Shown piece by piece: positions 2,349 through 11,217 of a DNA stretch of 32,000 nucleotides; positions within the stretch are counted from its first letter, which is position 1, and each line of letters opens with the position of its first letter. The notes under the pieces were generated by a model. It searched no databases, had not been told where the DNA came from, and saw nothing but the letters and a program-made list of their open reading frames with translations. The DNA lies in assembly GCF_004376175.1 (NCBI RefSeq), contig NZ_SNUY01000001.1, positions 94,383 to 126,382 of the forward strand. The letters are read 5' to 3'. Source of the stretch: Halalkalibacterium halodurans (GTDB taxonomy: Bacteria; Bacillota; Bacilli; Bacillales; Bacillaceae_D). A program made the position numbers and the translations under genes.

Positions 2349-4979
2349 TTACTTTGCATCATACCATGTGTCACCGCAAGCCACGTCCACCTTTAGGGGC
2401 ACGCGTAATTCCACAGCTTGCTCCATAACAGAAGTCACAAGCTCTTTCATTTGCGCCACTTCTTCCTTCGGCACCTCAAAAATTAATTCGTCATGCACTT
2501 GCAACAGTAATCGGCTTTGCAAGTCTTCTTCGTCCATCCGACTCGCCATCTGAACCATCGCTTGCTTTATAATGTCAGCAGCTGTTCCTTGGATCGGTGT
2601 GTTCATGGCTGTACGCTCTGCAAAGCTACGTTGATTGAAATTGCGACTCGTTAAGTCAGGCAAATAACGGCGGCGCTTCAACAGTGTTGTCACATAACCC
2701 TTCTCTCGAGCTTCATCGATGACGTGATCGAGGTACTCCTTTACCTTCGGGTAGCTAGCAAAATAACGCTCGATGAACGTTGCCGCTTCCTTCCTAGTGA
2801 TGCCAAGGTTTTGGCTCAGTCCATAATCGCTAATGCCATACACAATTCCGAAGTTGACCGCTTTCGCACTGCGACGCATGTTGGACGTTACTTCTTCCTG
2901 GCTAACATGAAATACGTCCATCGCCGTTTTCGTGTGGACATCCATATCTTCACGGAACGCTTCCATAAGCTTTTCATCTTCGGCAAAATGGGCAAGGACG
3001 CGCAATTCAATTTGCGAATAATCAGCAGCAAGAATGAACCAGTCCTTTTCCGATGGAACGAAGGCTTTGCGAATTTTACGTCCTTCCTCTAAGCGAATCG
3101 GGATGTTTTGTAAATTCGGATCTGTCGAGCTTAAGCGACCGGTTTGAGTTAGAGCCTGATTGAAGCGGGTATGAACCTTCCCAGTCCCCTTGTGAACAAC
3201 TTTCAGCAATCCGTCAATATACGTAGAATTTAGCTTACCGAGCTGCCGATAGTGAAGTATGTGATCAATGATCTCGTGTTGCCCAGCTAGCTTCTCTAAC
3301 ACATCAGCAGACGTTGAATACCCTGTCTTCGTCTTTTTAATGACTGGAAGCTGTAACTTCTCAAATAAAATTTCACCCAGTTGCTTAGGTGAGTTTATAT
3401 TGAATGATATGCCAGCTAATTCGTGGATCGTTTGCTCAAGCTCCTCAAGACGAGCATTTAAGTCCGCACCCATTTGCTCAAGCTGCTCAACATCGACTTT
3501 TACACCTGTTGTTTCCATTCGTCCTAAAATGACCGAAAGCGGCATCTCCAATTCGTTGAACAACCCTAGCTGCTCATTTTCTTTCAGCTTCTCTTCAACG
3601 TGCTCCTTTAATTGAAAAATCGCGTCCGCTTTCCGCGCCAGGTGTTCTCCTAGCTCTTTCTCGTCAGGAATCCGGCGTTTAGCCCCTTTCCCATAAACCG
3701 CCTCATCTTCATGTACGTGACCTTTCCGGTGATGTTTCGTCACATCGCTCACTTCATGAAACGATGTGGACGGGTCTAATAAATAGGAGGCCATTTGCAA
3801 GTCAAATGTACTACCAGCTAGTTCAATGTTTTTCCAGCCTAACGCAACGACCGCACGCTTCGCATCAAACAACCACTTCTCCTTGCGTTCATCCTTTAAC
3901 CATTGAATAAGCGCTTCCGATCGGAGAGCTTCATCTGTTGGAATGTAATAGCAACCATTGTTATGGGCGATCGCCAGCCCTAAAATGTCGCCTTGATGGT
4001 AGTTCTCATCCAACACTTCCACAACAAGGGCAGCTTTATCCGCTAAATGCGCCTTTTTTACCTCACGAAGCGTTTCATAGTTCAAAGACTGGAGTTCTTC
4101 CTTTTCAATCCCTTCTCCGTCTGCATCGACTTTGTCGAGCAATGAGTTAAAATCAAGCTCTTTGAACAATTTCACAACTTCTTTTTTATCATATTCACCA
4201 AACGTAAACGAATCTGCGTCCAGCGTCACTGGGGCTTCCAGATAAATCGTCGCCAACTTCTTGCTCATAAGGGCTTGGTCACGATGTTCTTCCAGTCGCT
4301 CCTTCATCTTTTTCCCTGAAATTTCGTCGATGGACTCTAGTACTTTTTCAACCGAACCATATTCCTTTAACAATTTCAGCGCTGTCTTTTCTCCGATGCC
4401 TGGAACGCCCGGAATATTATCCGAACTATCCCCCATGAGACCTTTCATATCAATAATCTGCTCTGGTGTAATTCCATATCGTTCTTCAATGCCTTTTTCA
4501 TCATAGACATCAATCTGTGTAATTCCTTTTCTCGTCAAAGCGACCGTCACATGGTCAGACACGATTTGCAACAAGTCTTTATCACCGGTAAAGATTTTCA
4601 CTTCAAAGTTTTCTTGACTCGCCTGTTTTGCCAATGTACCGATGAGATCGTCCGCTTCAAAGTTTTCCACTTCAACACGGGCAATGTTAAACGCATCCAA
4701 GAGCTCGCGAATGAGCGGAAATTGCTCTGAAAGCTCTGGCGGCGTTTTTTGCCTTCCACTTTTGTACGCATCATATGTATCATGCCTAAATGTGGTCTTA
4801 CCCGCGTCAAAAGCAACAACCATGTGAGTTGGCTTTTCGTCTTCCAACACCTTTAACAGCATCATTGTAAATCCATACACGGCATTCGTATAAACACCTT
4901 TATCGTTATTAAGCAATGGCAATGCAAAAAATGCGCGATACGCAATACTATTTCCATCGATCAGTACTAGTTTTTTCAA
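2349..4979 (-). CDS. polA: DNA polymerase I
   Basis: 876 aa with TTG start 9 nt after AGAGAGGGG. Has a 5'-nuclease N-domain (LIDGNSIAYRAFFA) and Pol A motifs DYSQIELRVLAH, RRSAKAVNFGIVYG and QVHDEL. Confidence 0.97.
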   Translation of the reverse strand: MKKLVLIDGNSIAYRAFFALPLLNNDKGVYTNAVYGFTMMLLKVLEDEKPTHMVVAFDAGKTTFRHDTYDAYKSGRQKTPPELSEQFPLIRELLDAFNIARVEVENFEADDLIGTLAKQASQENFEVKIFTGDKDLLQIVSDHVTVALTRKGITQIDVYDEKGIEERYGITPEQIIDMKGLMGDSSDNIPGVPGIGEKTALKLLKEYGSVEKVLESIDEISGKKMKERLEEHRDQALMSKKLATIYLEAPVTLDADSFTFGEYDKKEVVKLFKELDFNSLLDKVDADGEGIEKEELQSLNYETLREVKKAHLADKAALVVEVLDENYHQGDILGLAIAHNNGCYYIPTDEALRSEALIQWLKDERKEKWLFDAKRAVVALGWKNIELAGSTFDLQMASYLLDPSTSFHEVSDVTKHHRKGHVHEDEAVYGKGAKRRIPDEKELGEHLARKADAIFQLKEHVEEKLKENEQLGLFNELEMPLSVILGRMETTGVKVDVEQLEQMGADLNARLEELEQTIHELAGISFNINSPKQLGEILFEKLQLPVIKKTKTGYSTSADVLEKLAGQHEIIDHILHYRQLGKLNSTYIDGLLKVVHKGTGKVHTRFNQALTQTGRLSSTDPNLQNIPIRLEEGRKIRKAFVPSEKDWFILAADYSQIELRVLAHFAEDEKLMEAFREDMDVHTKTAMDVFHVSQEEVTSNMRRSAKAVNFGIVYGISDYGLSQNLGITRKEAATFIERYFASYPKVKEYLDHVIDEAREKGYVTTLLKRRRYLPDLTSRNFNQRSFAERTAMNTPIQGTAADIIKQAMVQMASRMDEEDLQSRLLLQVHDELIFEVPKEEVAQMKELVTSVMEQAVELRVPLKVDVACGDTWYDAK

Positions 4980-5260: not shown

Positions 5261-5297
5261 AAAGAAAAAAGCTAGCAAAGAACAATCTCCGCTAGCT
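5261..5297 (-). terminator. Rho-independent terminator after hflC
   Basis: 7-bp stem agctagc (5270-5276 / 5291-5297) starts at the hflC stop. On the minus strand it is followed by UUUUUUCUUU. Confidence 0.65.
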
Positions 5298-6229
5298 CAG
5301 TCTGTGTACCCCATCAAGATTCTTGCGTAAGGGGAATCGGCTGGTAACACGATAACCGTCTGATCCCCGATCGTTTTTTCATAGGAAAGCAACGTGCGGT
5401 ACAGTTGGTAAAACTCTGGATCACGTCCGAAGGATTCGTTGTAGATTTCTGCAGCCTCGGCCTCACCAGCACCGATAATTTCTTCAGCATCCGCTTTAGC
5501 CTTGGCTAAGATTTCCGTTACTTCCTGATCGGTTCTTGCTCGAATCCGGTTCGCTTCAGCATCCCCTTGAGACAAGTAATCTTGGGCGATGGACTCCCGC
5601 TCCGAAATCATCCGCCGATAGACCGCCTCTTCGTTTTCCTTCGGTAAGTCCGTTCGCTTCATACGTACATCAAGTAAGACAATGCCTAAATCTTGGCGTT
5701 CAAGTGAACTGTTTACTCGTTCCTTTACTTGCTGATTGAAGTCTCCCCTAGAGTTTTCCTCTTCGTTAATGATCTCATCAAACTCTAACTGTCCAAGCTC
5801 AGCCCGAATCGCTGAAAAAATTTGCTCCCCTAAAATAGCTTCCGCTCCTTGGAGAGATCCTACATTGGAAATCATTCTGAGCGGATCCTCGATGCGCCAT
5901 AGAGCGTAATGATCTGCCAGCATCCGTTTTTTATCGCGCGTGTTAATTTCCGCTGGGGGAATGTCATAGATCATTTGATATTTTGGCAGTGTACTGACAC
6001 TTTGAATGAACGGAATTTTAAATTTTAGCCCTGGCTCGCTTTCAACACGAACGACTTCTCCGAACTGACGCACCACTTTATATTCGCCCTGCTCGACGAT
6101 AAATAAGTTGGAGAGGATAATTCCAACAATCCCGATTAACAAAACGGCGACAGACCCTAGTTGAACATATTTACGAAGTTCCACCGGTGGCCGCTTTTCA
6201 TCGAAGTTAATGATTTTGTCATCACTCAT
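5297..6229 (-). CDS. hflC: SPFH/band-7 protease modulator HflC
   Basis: 310 aa with an N-terminal TM, an SPFH domain and a coiled coil. Blocks align with E. coli HflC as recalled (PGLKFKIPF, RMISERESIA, DPEFYQLYRTL). Overlaps the hflK stop by 8 nt (ATGAGTGA). Confidence 0.88.
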   Translation of the reverse strand: MSDDKIINFDEKRPPVELRKYVQLGSVAVLLIGIVGIILSNLFIVEQGEYKVVRQFGEVVRVESEPGLKFKIPFIQSVSTLPKYQMIYDIPPAEINTRDKKRMLADHYALWRIEDPLRMISNVGSLQGAEAILGEQIFSAIRAELGQLEFDEIINEEENSRGDFNQQVKERVNSSLERQDLGIVLLDVRMKRTDLPKENEEAVYRRMISERESIAQDYLSQGDAEANRIRARTDQEVTEILAKAKADAEEIIGAGEAEAAEIYNESFGRDPEFYQLYRTLLSYEKTIGDQTVIVLPADSPYARILMGYTD

Positions 6230-7181
6230 TGTTCGTCCCCTCCTCTACAGGTGCTTGTTGCTGACGTTCCAACGGGCGGATCGGCAAATAATTAATCGTA
6301 TCGTTATTGCTATCCATAATGTAAATTTCCGTGTCCGGTAAAATGGACTCTAACGTTTCAAGAACGAGACGTTGACGGGTAACGTCAGGATTCACTAAAT
6401 ATTCTTCGTATAAAGCATTAAAACGGGCCACATCCCCACGGGCGGTCTCGATCCGGTCCGCTCTCTGCCCTTCCGCTCTTGAAATAATTGCGTCTTTTTC
6501 ACCCTCCACTTCGTTCGTTTCTTGATTTCGGTAACGATTAGCCTCGTTAATTTTCGTTAAGCGTTCTTCACGAGCATCCGTTACATCGGTAAACGCACGT
6601 CGTACTTCTTCCGTCGGTAGCTCTACGTCTTGTAGCTTCACATCTGAGATGCTGATGCCAATTTGATAAAGGTCCATAAGTTCAACTAACGATTCAAAAA
6701 TATCAGCTTCAATGGTCGGACGTTCGTCGGTTAATGCTTCATCAACAGATGCACTTCCAATAACGCTGCGCAAAGCTGAAGAGGTAGCATTATATAATAG
6801 CTCTTTCGGATCCTCTGTGCTATATAAGTATTGCTCTGGGTCTGTGATTCGCCATTGAACAGCTAAATCGGCAAACACGATATTTTCATCCCCAGTGATC
6901 ATTTTCGCCTCATCTGTAAATTCAACGACTTCCCCTTCATCTTCTTTATAACCGACTTGCAAGTTAAAGGTTCCTCTTGGTAATATCTCAACCTTTTGAA
7001 TCGGCCACGGCATTTTGAATTTAAGTCCTGGCTCGTCAATGGTTTCCTCTACTTTTCCGAACGTGATCAAAGCAGCTTGTTCCGTTTCATCGACTATGTA
7101 CCAACCTGTGACGAGAAATAGCCCAAGAATCGCGGCGCCGATAAGCGAGAAAAAACCTACTACTAATTGCCGAATCGTCAT
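6222..7181 (-). CDS. hflK: SPFH/band-7 protease modulator HflK
   Basis: 319 aa with an N-terminal TM, an SPFH domain (PGLKFKMPWPI) and an HflK-like C-terminal helical region. The SD AGGGGGGA lies 7 nt before the ATG. Translationally coupled to hflC. Confidence 0.88.
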   Translation of the reverse strand: MTIRQLVVGFFSLIGAAILGLFLVTGWYIVDETEQAALITFGKVEETIDEPGLKFKMPWPIQKVEILPRGTFNLQVGYKEDEGEVVEFTDEAKMITGDENIVFADLAVQWRITDPEQYLYSTEDPKELLYNATSSALRSVIGSASVDEALTDERPTIEADIFESLVELMDLYQIGISISDVKLQDVELPTEEVRRAFTDVTDAREERLTKINEANRYRNQETNEVEGEKDAIISRAEGQRADRIETARGDVARFNALYEEYLVNPDVTRQRLVLETLESILPDTEIYIMDSNNDTINYLPIRPLERQQQAPVEEGTNNE

Positions 7182-7417
7182 GTTGCAGTCCCCCCTGTAA
7201 AATCATTTTCTATATGTACGTATGAAACGAACACTTTGTTTCATGTTTGGAAACTTGGCGGTGGCAAAGCCTTATCTCTAATAACTAGTGAAAATTGCTT
7301 CTTCTTTCTACCATGGACCCTATATGATAAGCAGCTGCCAGTGCCTTCCCAATTCTATTATAATACAACTTTAGAAAACCGGGGGATAGAAGTGATGTTG
7401 TGAAGGAAAGTTTATAA

Positions 7418-7458
7418 GCGAAAAGAGGGACGAAAGCTTCAGGGGGTGCTTTCGTCCC
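7418..7458 (-). terminator. Rho-independent terminator between phoR and hflK
   Basis: 11-bp perfect stem gggacgaaagc (7458-7448) / gctttcgtccc (7437-7427) with 10-nt loop ACCCCCUGAA, then UCUUUUCGCUU on the minus strand. Confidence 0.7.
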
Positions 7459-7545
7459 AACACAAGGGGATGTGTTATTGCTTGTAAACCAATTGCAGGG
7501 ATGAGAAGAGCAATCAGCTTACAACGGCATTGATGAAACCGTTCA
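7418..7545 (-). ncRNA. Candidate ~125-nt PhoP-dependent small RNA (or hflKC leader)
   Basis: ORF-free and SD-free segment between a Pho-box promoter (predicted +1 near 7545) and the 7427-7458 terminator. Hairpins at 7523-7543, 7477-7482/7509-7514 and 7459-7476 (loop AUCCCCUU), plus the terminator hairpin (loop ACCCCCUGAA). Confidence 0.35.
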
Positions 7546-7551
7546 ATGGTT

Positions 7552-7605
7552 ATCATAAGGTATCAAAGTTAACCTTGCATAAAGGACTTGTAAAAAATGT
7601 GTAAA
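7552..7605 (-). promoter_or_regulatory. Pho box (4 direct TT(A/T/C)ACA-like hexamers, 11-bp phasing) plus -10 TATGAT
   Basis: The minus strand, starting 2 nt after the phoR stop, reads TTTACA-cattt-TTTACA-agtcc-TTTATG-caagg-TTAACT-ttgatacct-TATGAT. The hexamers then span about -60 to -22, which is the known PhoP~P core-binding geometry in B. subtilis. Confidence 0.55.
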
Positions 7606-7607
7606 GC

Positions 7608-9377
7608 TCATGACTTTTCTTCATCATCACGGTAGCGATGGAACTGAATCGTAAAGGTTGTCCCTTTTCCGAATTCGCTCTCCACGAGGATTTTTCCTTG
7701 ATGGGCTTCTACAAGGTGCTTCACGATCGCAAGTCCAAGTCCAGTTCCTCCAGAGTTTCGACTTCTTGCCCGGTCCACCCGATAAAAACGTTCAAAAATA
7801 CGTGGAATTTCAGACTCTCTGATGCCAATGCCTGTATCGTTTACCTCAAATTCGACCACATCCCCATGATCTTTCAGGGCCAAATCGATTCGTCCCCCAT
7901 TCGATGTGTAAGTGATCGCATTGTTGACTAAATTAATCGCAATTTGCTTTAATCTTTCGGGATCCCCTTCGAGATCAAATGAACCCTCTGCCGAGAGGGA
8001 GATGTCAATCCCTTTCTCTTCTGCTTTCCCTTTCAACAATGTCATAACTTCACTAACCACTGCAAACAAATTTGTCTGTTGCCAATTTAACTGAAAATAG
8101 TTTTGCTCGATTTTGGAAAGCTCTAATAAATCGTGAATGAGGCTTTGAAGTCGCTCACTTTCCTTCCAAATAATGTGAAGAAACTGATCTCTGAGCTGTT
8201 CATCATGCATTGCCCCATCGAGCAGTGTTTCCGTAAATCCTTTGATGGAAGTCACTGGAGTTTTTAACTCATGAGATACGTTCGCTACAAAGTCTTTTCT
8301 AACTTGCTCAAGCTTTTTCAATTCGGTAATGTCATGGAAGACAAGAGCAATTCCTTTTAATTTTCCATTTTCCCTAACAATGGGGGCTCCGTGTACATCA
8401 AAATGTCGGTATTCCAGATGGATCGGCAGTTTCACTTGTCGCCGTTGCCGCTTTTCTGTTAAAAAGATATCTTGGACGATTTTAATGATTTCTTTATGCT
8501 TGATCACATCATGATACAACTGGTGGAGCCAAAGATCCGTATCTTCTTGGAAAATATCGTGGCATGTCTTGTTAATTAGAGAAATATCGCCTCGCGTGTT
8601 AATTAAAATAAGGCCGCTTCCCATATTTTCAATGAGCGTTTCTAGACGTTCTTTTTGGACTTGATGGCGCTTCGTCAACTGCTCCAAATTATAGGCCAAC
8701 ACATTGATGGAGCGATTTAATTGTCCAACTTCATCACGACTTTCCTCTGACGTCCGCGCTTGGTAATCCCCTTCGGCTAATTTGTTGGCCACAACTGTCG
8801 CACTCTCAATCGGGCGAATCATTTGGTTGGCAATGCGATAGGTGACAGAAACGATCACTAAAAACGCGATCGTAAAGCTCACAATGAGGATGGCCCAAAG
8901 CGTGCGATTAACAGAGTTCACCGCTTCAATTGGGAGCCCTAAGCGCACATAGCCAATGGTTTCATTCGCTTCATTTTGAATCGGAACAGCATAGAACAAT
9001 AATTCCGTTTCGACGGTCGTGCTGTAACGGACAATGCCTTCCTCAAGCTCAGTGAATTCCGGTCGATCGGCATGGTTTTCCATTTCCGCAGGGTCAGCTG
9101 CTGATTCCCCAACGACCGTACCATCTGCTAAAATGATCGTTACACGAGCATCTAGCTTTTGACTAATTTCCTCTGTTAGCGTCTGAACTTCATTGAATAA
9201 GACTGCCTCATTTTCAACCATCGAAGCTGCTAGGTACGTCTCCTTTTTGAGCCGATCAGTCAAATTTTCTAAATAAACATTTTTAAAGATTTGCCCGATG
9301 ACAAGACCTAGTCCTGCCATCACAAGAAGGGTGACGGTAAGCACAGCCAACACAAGACGGTAGCGAAATTTAGTCAT
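7608..9377 (-). CDS. phoR: Phosphate-sensing histidine kinase PhoR
   Basis: 589 aa with 2 TM, HAMP and PAS domains, H-box SHELKTPVTSI, and HATPase motifs DTGIGI and GGTGLGLAIV. Overlaps the phoP stop by 8 nt. Confidence 0.95.
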   Translation of the reverse strand: MTKFRYRLVLAVLTVTLLVMAGLGLVIGQIFKNVYLENLTDRLKKETYLAASMVENEAVLFNEVQTLTEEISQKLDARVTIILADGTVVGESAADPAEMENHADRPEFTELEEGIVRYSTTVETELLFYAVPIQNEANETIGYVRLGLPIEAVNSVNRTLWAILIVSFTIAFLVIVSVTYRIANQMIRPIESATVVANKLAEGDYQARTSEESRDEVGQLNRSINVLAYNLEQLTKRHQVQKERLETLIENMGSGLILINTRGDISLINKTCHDIFQEDTDLWLHQLYHDVIKHKEIIKIVQDIFLTEKRQRRQVKLPIHLEYRHFDVHGAPIVRENGKLKGIALVFHDITELKKLEQVRKDFVANVSHELKTPVTSIKGFTETLLDGAMHDEQLRDQFLHIIWKESERLQSLIHDLLELSKIEQNYFQLNWQQTNLFAVVSEVMTLLKGKAEEKGIDISLSAEGSFDLEGDPERLKQIAINLVNNAITYTSNGGRIDLALKDHGDVVEFEVNDTGIGIRESEIPRIFERFYRVDRARSRNSGGTGLGLAIVKHLVEAHQGKILVESEFGKGTTFTIQFHRYRDDEEKS

Positions 9378-10089
9378 TCAACTGCGGCTCCTCTAGCTTA
9401 TAGCCTAAGCCACGAATCGTTTTAATGTAAATCGGCTTTTTCGTATTTGGTTCAATCTTTTCTCTTAAATGACTAATGTGCACATCCACAATTCGAGTAT
9501 CACCAACGAATTCATAATTCCAAACCGCATTCAGCAGTTGATCCCTCGTAAGCACTCGACCTTTATGATTCGCTAAATAAAGAAGAAGTTCAAATTCTTT
9601 TGGTGTTAACTCAAGAGGCTGACCTTTTAAGTAGACTTCGTAATTATCAGGGTAAATTTCCACGTTGCCGAATGATAGGGTTGAAGTGGAACGGCTATTG
9701 TCTTCATGGTTATTTTGAGCATGTCCCACTCTCCGTAAAATGGCGCGCACTCTCGCCACAACCTCTCTGGGACTGAAAGGCTTTGTCATATAATCATCGG
9801 CTCCTAGCTCCAGCCCAAGAACTTTATCAAATTCGTCGTCTTTTGCAGTCAGCATAAGGATCGGGGTCATCACTTTACTTTGGCGGAGTTGTTTACATAC
9901 ATCGAGTCCATCCATTTCAGGTAACATGAGGTCTAAAATAATAAGATCGAACGTTTGCGTCTTAGCTAGTTGTAGCCCAGAAGCTCCATCCATTGCTGTC
10001 ACGACCTCGTAGCCTGACTGTTCAAGATTAAACTGCAATAACGTCACAATTGATTCTTCATCGTCTACTACTAACAATCTTTGTGTCAT
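9370..10089 (-). CDS. phoP: Response regulator PhoP (OmpR/PhoB family)
   Basis: 239 aa with a receiver domain (VVDDEESI, ILDLMLPEMDG, LTAKDD) and a winged helix (TIRGLGYKL). SD GGAGG upstream. Confidence 0.95.
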   Translation of the reverse strand: MTQRLLVVDDEESIVTLLQFNLEQSGYEVVTAMDGASGLQLAKTQTFDLIILDLMLPEMDGLDVCKQLRQSKVMTPILMLTAKDDEFDKVLGLELGADDYMTKPFSPREVVARVRAILRRVGHAQNNHEDNSRSTSTLSFGNVEIYPDNYEVYLKGQPLELTPKEFELLLYLANHKGRVLTRDQLLNAVWNYEFVGDTRIVDVHISHLREKIEPNTKKPIYIKTIRGLGYKLEEPQLND

Positions 10090-10151
10090 TCACTCAAATC
10101 CTCCATCAGCATATTTGAACGGTTTCCCCAAATCCCCTCTATCTAACACTT

Positions 10152-10160
10152 AGTATACCA
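10152..10160 (-). promoter_or_regulatory. Candidate extended -10 (TGgTATACT) upstream of phoP
   Basis: The minus strand reads tttatttgGTATACTaag about 65 nt upstream of the phoP ATG. No good -35 and no obvious Pho box here. Confidence 0.3.
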
Positions 10161-10272: not shown

Positions 10273-11217
10273 TTATTCTTTTGGTAGTGCCGACATGACG
10301 TTGCGAACAGATTCAATGGACTTAGCAAAGGTCGCTTTCTCTTCATCGGTTAGATCAAGCTCAATAACCTTTTCAATGCCGTCTCCGCCAAGAATCGTCG
10401 GAACTCCAACATAGATATCTTCATATCCATACTCACCTTCAAGGTAAGCAATCGTTGGAAGGACGCGTTTCTTATCTTTCAGAATGGCTTCGACCATCTC
10501 TGCAAGTGAAGCGGCTGGTGCATAATAAGCACTGCCATTTCCAAGCAAGCCGACAATTTCACCGCCGCCTTTGCGCGTACGTTCCACAATCGCATCGATG
10601 CGCTCTTGTGGAAGGAGTTTTTCAAGCGGAATCCCACCTGCATAGGAGTAACGAATCAATGGCACCATGTCATCCCCGTGCCCCCCAAGAACAAAACCTG
10701 TAATATCTTCAACAGATAGGTTAAGCTCTTGGGCGACGAACGTACGGAAGCGTGCCGTATCTAGAACGCCCGATTGACCGATGACGCGGTTTTTCGGGAA
10801 ACCAGATTCTTTATAAACGGTATAGGTCATCGCATCTGCTGGGTTCGTTAAAACAATAATGTAGGCGTTTGGTGAATGTTTCACCACTTCTTTCGTAACA
10901 GCCTTCATAATTCCCGCATTTGTTGATACGAGATCATCGCGGCTCATACCAGGCTTACGAGCAATTCCAGCCGTAATGACAACCACATCAGAATCCTTCG
11001 TATCTTCATAGCTAGACGTACCTGTGATGTTCACATCAACCCCTTGAACCGGCGTTGACTCGAGCATATCTAACGCTTTTCCTTTAGTCGGACCTTCCAT
11101 TTGCGGAATATCCACAAGAACGACATCACCTAATTCCTTTTGAGCAACCATTAGCGCTGTCGTAGCACCTGTGAAACCCGCCCCAATAACGGAGACCTTT
11201 CTGCGTTTAATTGCCAT
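10273..11217 (-). CDS. mdh: Malate dehydrogenase (LDH-like)
   Basis: 314 aa with Rossmann motif VIGAGFTG and LDH/MDH-family organisation. Third gene of citZ-icd-mdh. Confidence 0.96.

Follow-up and report, generated by a model that had tools for sequence, protein, structure and literature searches.

The closest described system to the element reported here is PhoS (formerly Bas01), a 66-nt small regulatory RNA (sRNA) of Bacillus velezensis FZB42 and Bacillus subtilis that is encoded in the 3′ region of phoR (Li et al. 2024, NPJ Biofilms Microbiomes 10:115; PMC11522486). PhoS has a promoter of its own, as judged by a primary, terminator exonuclease (TEX)-resistant 5′ end and by promoter activity in gfp fusions, and it ends at a rho-independent terminator; its synthesis depends on PhoP, being induced at 0.3 mM phosphate (Pi) and undetectable above 1.8-3 mM (PMC11522486). 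A 17-nt C-rich 5′ seed, GAACCCCUUCAUCCAAG, reported to be 100% conserved in Bacillus, pairs with positions +21 to +47 of the phoP leader and opens a hairpin that sequesters the ribosome binding site (RBS), thereby activating phoP translation and creating a positive feedback (PMC11522486). According to that report, the promoter falls on four Pho boxes that had been noted in B. subtilis in 2015 at the 3′ end of phoPR (PMC11522486). Here we analyze the corresponding locus in a 32,000-nt stretch of the genome of Halalkalibacterium halodurans (contig NZ_SNUY01000001.1, positions 94,383 to 126,382; hereafter the window), where a Pho-box promoter directly after phoR is followed on the minus strand by a short RNA capped by a terminator.

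We put the probability that this element is the H. halodurans counterpart of PhoS, a PhoP-activated sRNA encoded directly after phoR, at about 0.8. The two share their site, right after phoR in an mdh-phoP-phoR cluster, four phased Pho boxes with a −10 element, a GAAC start, a UUCAUC motif, a rho-independent terminator, and a 5′ end that is complementary to a stretch of the phoP leader some 25-50 nt before the AUG. They differ in size, PhoS being 66 nt and the H. halodurans RNA predicted at about 125 nt. The latter additionally has a 13-bp hairpin whose loop carries CUCAUCCC, together with a ACAUCCCCUU stretch and a terminator loop rich in C, and hflKC lies downstream of it. The seeds also differ: the window sequence GAACGGUUUCAUCAAUG is identical to the PhoS seed at 12 of 17 positions, CCC at positions 5-7 being replaced by GGU and the CCCC core by GGUU, and the leader site is changed accordingly. 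Both seed types are bridged by GAACGGUUCCCCUCAAUG of Alkalihalobacillus alcalophilus and ACAACCCCUCAUCCAAGG of Peribacillus. A PhoP-activated sRNA after phoR is thus already known from 2024, and the H. halodurans form is a divergent, elongated homologue; a preliminary description of the locus, which stated that no Pho-regulon sRNA had been described in Bacillaceae, had overlooked PhoS/Bas01 at exactly this position (PMC11522486).

The RNA also invites comparison with RoxS/RsaE (RF01820), a C-rich sRNA known from Bacillus and Staphylococcus. Both have several exposed C-rich regions, a terminator loop among them, with the potential to base-pair with G-rich Shine-Dalgarno (SD) sequences, and both are linked to an OmpR-family regulator, which for RoxS is the response regulator ResD. 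In contrast to RoxS/RsaE, however, the window RNA lies at another locus behind other regulator boxes (Pho boxes), and its best-supported pairing surface is a 5′ end that is not C-rich.

A Pho-box promoter directly after phoR

On the minus strand the phoR stop codon TGA occupies 7610-7608, and the first of four direct Pho-box hexamers begins 2 nt further on (Table 1). A degenerate four-repeat pattern (TTHAY-N6 taken four times, with at most one mismatch) matched this site and no other on either strand of the window, where 0.01 matches were expected by chance from 100 dinucleotide shuffles.

The region downstream of phoR was fetched from 13 other species, giving 14 with the window. Eight are alkaliphiles (H. 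ligniniphilum, Alkalihalobacterium elongatum, Halalkalibacter krulwichiae, Alkalihalophilus pseudofirmus, A. alcalophilus, Anaerobacillus alkaliphilus, Salipaludibacillus and Alkalicoccus luteus) and five are other relatives (B. subtilis, B. velezensis, another Bacillus, Anoxybacillus and Peribacillus simplex). A contig scan with 8-residue patterns from PhoR had been too specific, with A. luteus as its only useful relative and distant kinases making up most of its 80 loci; closer genomes were reached by a protein search and exact-protein look-up. All 13 species carry four phased Pho hexamers, a −10 element and a terminator-capped, open reading frame (ORF)-free RNA directly after phoR. Within the 14-species alignment, the TT.A positions are invariant in all four hexamers, as are the T, A and final T of the −10 box (TA...T), and the GAAC start stands in register in ten species. 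The B. subtilis and B. velezensis loci read TTTACA-5-TTAACA-5-TTCATG-5-TTAAAC, then a −10, then GAACCCCUUCAUCC, and the Pho boxes and −10 of the window align with them column for column. The Bacillus −10 is extended (TGnTAGGAT), whereas the H. halodurans TATGAT lacks the TG.

The transcription start of Bacillus PhoS was taken as the G of GAACCCCUUCAUCC, deduced from the numbering of mutants at C5, C7, U8, C10 and A11 in PMC11522486; the B. velezensis PhoS extracted in this way is 67 nt long, in agreement with the published 66 nt. Aligning the GAAC with the 5′ ends of B. velezensis and B. subtilis PhoS places the predicted H. halodurans +1 at G7544, one base from the position near 7545 given in the preliminary description. 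The coordinates that it gave for the hexamers, the TATGAT and the terminator all hold on the minus strand, and its central proposal was supported, with both promoter and RNA kept in 14 species. These results support the view that the element is a Pho-box promoter driving a short, terminator-capped non-coding RNA, for which PhoP binding and induction at low phosphate are predicted.

A structured RNA with compensatory changes

The RNA spanning 7546-7418 on the minus strand is predicted to form four hairpins with a minimum free energy of −46.5 kcal/mol, compared with −23.9 ± 3.0 kcal/mol for dinucleotide shuffles (z = −7.5), and none of 200 shuffles equalled it. A simple terminator scan overlooked the terminator at its end because the loop is 10 nt long; the stem is followed by CUCUUUUCGC, an interrupted U-tract. 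Since no other terminator follows phoR, this terminator probably also ends the phoPR transcripts. An extra terminator hairpin was observed in A. alcalophilus between the phoR stop and the Pho boxes (locus L109, 4797-4870).

Compensatory changes were found at 8 of the 11 pairs of the terminator stem across seven species. Hairpin 2, which is missing from the 66-nt Bacillus PhoS, shows two-sided changes at 5 of its 13 stem pairs among the four closest species, where its TCATCCC loop is invariant; the two stems together have 10 of 24 pairs with compensatory changes in these four. Conservation also extends to sequence motifs among the nine alkaliphile species: the 5′ region sequence GAACGGTTTC is identical in five, the CCC.T core of the ACAUCCCCUU region is invariant in all nine, ACATCCCCTT is identical in six, and the CCCCU terminator loop recurs. 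Taken together, the fold z-score, the compensatory stems and the retained C-rich motifs indicate that the RNA is under selection. Conservation of the hexamers and hairpins in relatives, which the preliminary description had named as a test of its proposal, was observed, with compensatory stem changes in addition.

Comparison with Rfam gave no family for the element. When 6800-8000 was scanned on both strands, RsaE (RF01820) was without a match at E ≤ 10, and permissive scanning of this region returned only an ncr1241 match and a snoRNA match, both attributable to chance. The ncr1241 match (RF02451; 7422-7486) reached 21.5 bits against a gathering threshold of 60 (E = 0.76) and is driven by the terminator (GGACG...CGUCC); ncr1241 lies between yugI and alaT in B. 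subtilis, a locus unrelated to the phoR spacer. PhoS itself is absent from Rfam 15, as the B. subtilis phoR-polA spacer gave no family when scanned, and alignments of PhoS loci could seed one. A metagenome scan with GAACGGTTTC-N(34-64)-YACATCCCCTT produced 19 matches, which we regard as chance because none has Pho boxes or a terminator. A literature search for H. halodurans transcriptome or sRNA papers returned nothing relevant.

Complementarity between the 5′ end and the phoP leader

Duplexes computed with the full-length sRNA were uninformative, being dominated by long spurious loops, and pairing was assessed with defined segments. All 10 nt of the core GAACGGUUUC (7544-7535) find their complement in GAAACCGUUC (10126-10117) of the phoP leader, and weaker pairing extends out to 10139. 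The duplex of sRNA nucleotides 1-23 with the leader has a predicted energy of −24.8 kcal/mol. For the first 24 nt the pairing, also at −24.8 kcal/mol, has z = −4.4, with 1 of 500 shuffles as good in one run and none of 500 in a second; for the first 14 nt it reaches −17.3 kcal/mol at −42, which none of 1000 shuffles matched. The validated PhoS-phoP pair of B. velezensis is weaker in the same 14-nt test (−15.4 kcal/mol, 39 of 1000 shuffles as good). Among 24 genes in the window, phoP ranked first as partner of the seed, the runner-up reaching −19.0. The seed region alone can form a weak hairpin (7543-7538 with 7528-7523). An extended −10, TGGTATACT, lies upstream of the predicted binding site, which would therefore fall within the transcribed phoP leader.

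Seed and leader change together across species. In H. ligniniphilum the first 24 nt pair with the phoP leader at −29.6 kcal/mol (z = −7.7). A. alcalophilus pairs ACGGUUCCCC with GGGGAACCGU (−21.0 kcal/mol, 0 of 1000 shuffles as good), A. luteus GAACUGCUUC with GAAGCAGUU (−16.3 kcal/mol, 1 of 1000) and A. pseudofirmus GAACGGUUUC with GAAGCCGUUU (−15.0 kcal/mol, 1 of 1000), while in Bacillus CCCC..CAUCC faces GGAUG..GGGG at −15.4 to −15.6 kcal/mol. This co-variation supports a PhoS-phoP interaction, and the best-supported pairing surface is the predicted contact of the sRNA 5′ end with the phoP leader, not the C-rich loops; the preliminary description had passed over it. The seed described as 100% conserved is replaced in these genera together with matching changes in the phoP leader, amounting to a natural series of compensatory mutations, and the PhoS-PhoP circuit appears to reach beyond Bacillus sensu stricto into Halalkalibacterium, Halalkalibacter, Alkalihalobacillus, Alkalihalophilus and Alkalicoccus.

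In the circuit that we propose by analogy with Bacillus PhoS, PhoP~P would bind the four phased hexamers at low phosphate, standing in for a −35, and together with the TATGAT −10 would start transcription at about G7544. The transcript would end at the terminator, giving an RNA of about 125 nt whose 5′ end, beginning with GAACGGUUUC, may pair with the phoP leader at 10126-10117 and on to 10139. Such pairing would increase the synthesis of PhoP and complete a loop of positive feedback.

Several observations weigh against equating the element with PhoS. At the positions of C5 and C7, shown by experiment to be critical in Bacillus PhoS, H. halodurans has G and U. With a covariance model of five Bacillus-type PhoS sequences, nothing was found in the window at E ≤ 10, and only terminator fragments were recovered in the other alkaliphile RNAs; homology at the RNA level is accordingly argued from position, promoter and the 5′ end, where about 12 of 17 residues are identical. 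The predicted fold of the H. halodurans phoP leader (−12.9 kcal/mol) has no clear RBS-sequestering (anti-SD) hairpin overlapping the site, so that the "anti-antisense" activation step of Bacillus is not transferable with confidence, and the direction of the effect on phoP is carried over from Bacillus alone. The +1, the RNA size and the PhoP dependence in H. halodurans are likewise ones that we infer, and the interrupted U-tract means that some read-through toward hflKC is possible. Furthermore, the RNA is kept in A. elongatum and Anaerobacillus although a convincing phoP-leader site was not found there (414 and 146 of 1000 shuffles as good, respectively), and the first 14 nt of H. krulwichiae are also unconvincing (101 of 1000), although its first 24 nt pair well with the phoP leader (−22.3, 1 of 500 shuffles). 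These cases indicate that phoP cannot be the sole target.

In A. elongatum (L082, 2200-2289) and Anaerobacillus alkaliphilus (L110, 2170-2292) the phoP leader is AT-rich and lies behind its own TTTACA-5-TTTACA boxes. The 5′ end of the Anaerobacillus RNA, GUAAACUGUAAUUGUAAGC (L110, 4841-4860), resembles reverse-complemented Pho-box hexamers and has a 10-nt exact complement, TTACAATTAC, within the region of the Pho-box promoter that precedes phoP in the same genome.

Conserved C-rich modules

The two C-rich loops of the preliminary description, ACAUCCCCUU and CACCCCCUGAA, lie where it had placed them and are conserved; a third conserved C-rich loop, CUCAUCCC at 7505-7498, was absent from it. Being conserved and exposed, these modules are probably functional. 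They paired with the phoP leader no better than their own shuffles did. In the comparison of 24 window genes, the hflK initiation region, ACAGGGGGGAC (7198-7188), was the best partner both for the ACAUCCCCUU region (−15.5) and for the terminator loop (−17.9, next −13.6), but this ranking is weak and serves only as a lead, since G-rich SDs of the GGGG type are common in the window. In most loci with hflKC, hflK has a GAGGGG(G)A-type SD, which is complementary to the C-rich loops of the sRNA.

The additional modules, missing from the 66-nt Bacillus RNA, point to additional targets, and they probably address further G-rich sites such as SD regions. A rather speculative extension is that the alkaliphile PhoS is a two-function sRNA, in which a fast-evolving seed, co-evolving with the phoP leader, would maintain the PhoP loop while added RoxS-like modules (CUCAUCCC, ACAUCCCCUU and the CCCCU loop) would bind G-rich SDs, including that of the hflKC operon. 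If true, phosphate starvation would thereby be connected to the FtsH-dependent quality control of membrane proteins.

Alternative explanations

An alternative that is compatible with the PhoS assignment, and that we consider possible if doubtful, is that the RNA acts as a RoxS/RsaE-like global regulator whose three C-rich regions mask the SDs of several mRNAs, possibly including hflK, the match to phoP being secondary or incidental. Such a role would fit motifs that are exposed in loops or single strands, that are kept across alkaliphile genera while the flanking stems vary, and that persist in A. elongatum and Anaerobacillus where the seed site in the phoP leader is missing; the first rank of the hflK initiation region points the same way. 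However, the Rfam comparison speaks against membership of the RoxS/RsaE family, to which the preliminary description had likened the C-rich loops, the C-rich segments pair with the phoP leader no better than shuffled versions of themselves, the hflK ranking is weakened by the frequency of GGGG-containing SDs, and the most constrained, co-varying pairing surface is the 5′ end. It is improbable, in our judgement, that there is no independent sRNA at all and that the hairpins are the terminator or 3′ untranslated region of phoPR, with the Pho boxes serving as a DNA site for termination, read-through or PhoP titration. Transcripts of phoPR must indeed enter the sRNA terminator, as no terminator separates the phoR stop from the Pho boxes, and autoregulation had been known to require the 3′ end of phoPR at a time when no RNA had yet been implicated (PMC11522486). 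Yet a −10 at the correct distance is kept in 14 species and the GAAC start is conserved, the same arrangement in Bacillus yields a primary TEX-resistant 5′ end and promoter activity in gfp fusions (PMC11522486), and A. alcalophilus retains promoter and RNA despite its separate phoR terminator. A mere terminator would also leave the seed conservation and its co-variation with the phoP leader unexplained.

The preliminary description had offered, as its alternative, a PhoP-controlled attenuated 5′ leader of hflKC. In favour of this, hflK starts 240 nt past the terminator on the same strand, the U-tract is imperfect, and the hflK SD is complementary to the C-rich loops. The reading was rejected, and we hold it to be very unlikely, because the RNA occurs without hflKC in other genera: in 6 of the 14 loci (Alkalicoccus, Salipaludibacillus, B. 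subtilis, B. velezensis, a third Bacillus and Anoxybacillus) promoter and RNA are present with polA directly downstream. In addition, the spacer between terminator and hflK is unconserved, with lengths of about 100 to 350 nt, the fold offers no evident antiterminator alternative, and hflK is preceded by a −10-like box of its own, TTGTATTATAAT at 7368-7357, downstream of the terminator, with a similar ..TACTATAAT box upstream of hflK in four relatives. The statement that the RNA is ORF-free needs a qualification, as a 61-aa ORF exists mechanically at 7371-7556 on the minus strand. That it encodes a small protein is scarcely credible: its ATG falls within the −10 hexamer, before the predicted +1, and is missing in relatives with TATAAT or TACAAT as −10, the ORF has no SD and no Pfam match, and it runs through the conserved terminator stem. 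In practice, on these grounds of start position, missing SD, missing Pfam match and unconserved ATG, the RNA is ORF-free. What was computed here for the PhoS counterpart comprises sequence features, conservation, compensatory stem changes, and the complementarity and co-variation of seed and leader.

Gene neighbourhood and related promoters

The minus strand of the window carries, in order, mdh, phoP, phoR, the spacer with the element, hflK, hflC and polA (Table 1). The PhoR protein is 100% identical to a Halalkalibacterium (Bacillus) halodurans protein. The hflKC pair sits between the sRNA and polA as a neighbour and not as a part of the element.

Table 1. Features of the phoR-hflK locus of H. 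halodurans (window coordinates)
Feature	Position	Strand	Basis or remark
Four direct Pho-box hexamers, predicted PhoP~P core site in place of a −35	7567..7605	−	sequence read directly
Individual hexamers	TTTACA 7605-7600, TTTACA 7594-7589, TTTATG 7583-7578, TTAACT 7572-7567	−	5-nt gaps, exact 11-bp phasing
−10 hexamer TATGAT	7552..7557	−	9 nt past last Pho hexamer
Predicted sRNA, long-form PhoS homologue, about 121-127 nt	7420..7544	−	predicted +1 at G7544 (GAACGG...), 3′ end in U-tract 7426-7418
5′ seed region GAACGGUUUCAUCAAUGCCGUUG	7522..7544	−	core GAACGGUUUC 7544-7535 complementary to phoP leader
Hairpin 2, 13-bp stem, loop motif CUCAUCCC at 7505-7498	7484..7522	−	predicted fold
C-rich region ACAUCCCCUU	7464..7473	−	loop of a short hairpin in H. 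halodurans, single-stranded in relatives
Intrinsic terminator, 11-bp stem 7458-7448 / 7437-7427, loop ACCCCCUGAA, U-tract	7418..7458	−	predicted fold
C-rich terminator loop CACCCCCUGAA	7438..7447	−	
Predicted sRNA site in phoP leader, GAGGGGAUUUGGGGAAACCGUUCA	10116..10139	−	−50..−27 from phoP AUG
Extended −10 TGGTATACT of phoP promoter	10152..10160	−	also upstream of phoP in A. pseudofirmus and A. alcalophilus
mdh	10273..11217	−	
phoP, response regulator	9370..10089	−	Pfam Response_reg + Trans_reg_C; mdh-phoP-phoR synteny as in B. subtilis
phoR, PnpS-type phosphate sensor kinase	7608..9377	−	Pfam architecture; NCBIfam PnpS 507 bits (cutoff 400)
hflK	6222..7181	−	NCBIfam HflK 232 bits (cutoff 159)
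hflC	5297..6229	−	NCBIfam HflC 217 bits (cutoff 134)
polA	2349..4979	−	

An hflK-hflC pair between phoS and polA was seen in H. halodurans, most of its alkaliphile relatives and P. simplex, and none was present at this position in the B. subtilis group, Anoxybacillus, Alkalicoccus or Salipaludibacillus. In H. krulwichiae (L083, 4950-5150) a segment of about 40 nt, AAAAGGCGCCTTTCCTTTTGGTTATAAAAGTAA, occurs twice between the sRNA terminator and hflK, on either side of a further hairpin, and may represent a small repeat element.

A Pho-box promoter right behind phoR seems to be a widespread arrangement with varying cargo. In Dehalococcoidia and Chloroflexi metagenome-assembled genomes, and in one of Eisenbacteria, four phased TTAACA/TTAAAC boxes stand directly after a phoR-like kinase gene (plus strand; L022 5759, L025 5782, L032 5753, L038 4135, L050 5770, L055 5743, L058 5765 and L071 3447). 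These boxes precede a protein-coding gene and not an sRNA, and several of the ORFs begin with MKKVLFVCVHNSGRSQMAE, resembling ArsC or a low-molecular-weight phosphatase. In Brevibacillus (L003, L005, L006 and L011), Pho-box-like repeats come after the PhoR homologue, about 60-200 nt beyond the end of the kinase match; next to them lie an SD and an ORF resembling PhoU (MTRHVFEEQLD...), and not a PhoS-like RNA.

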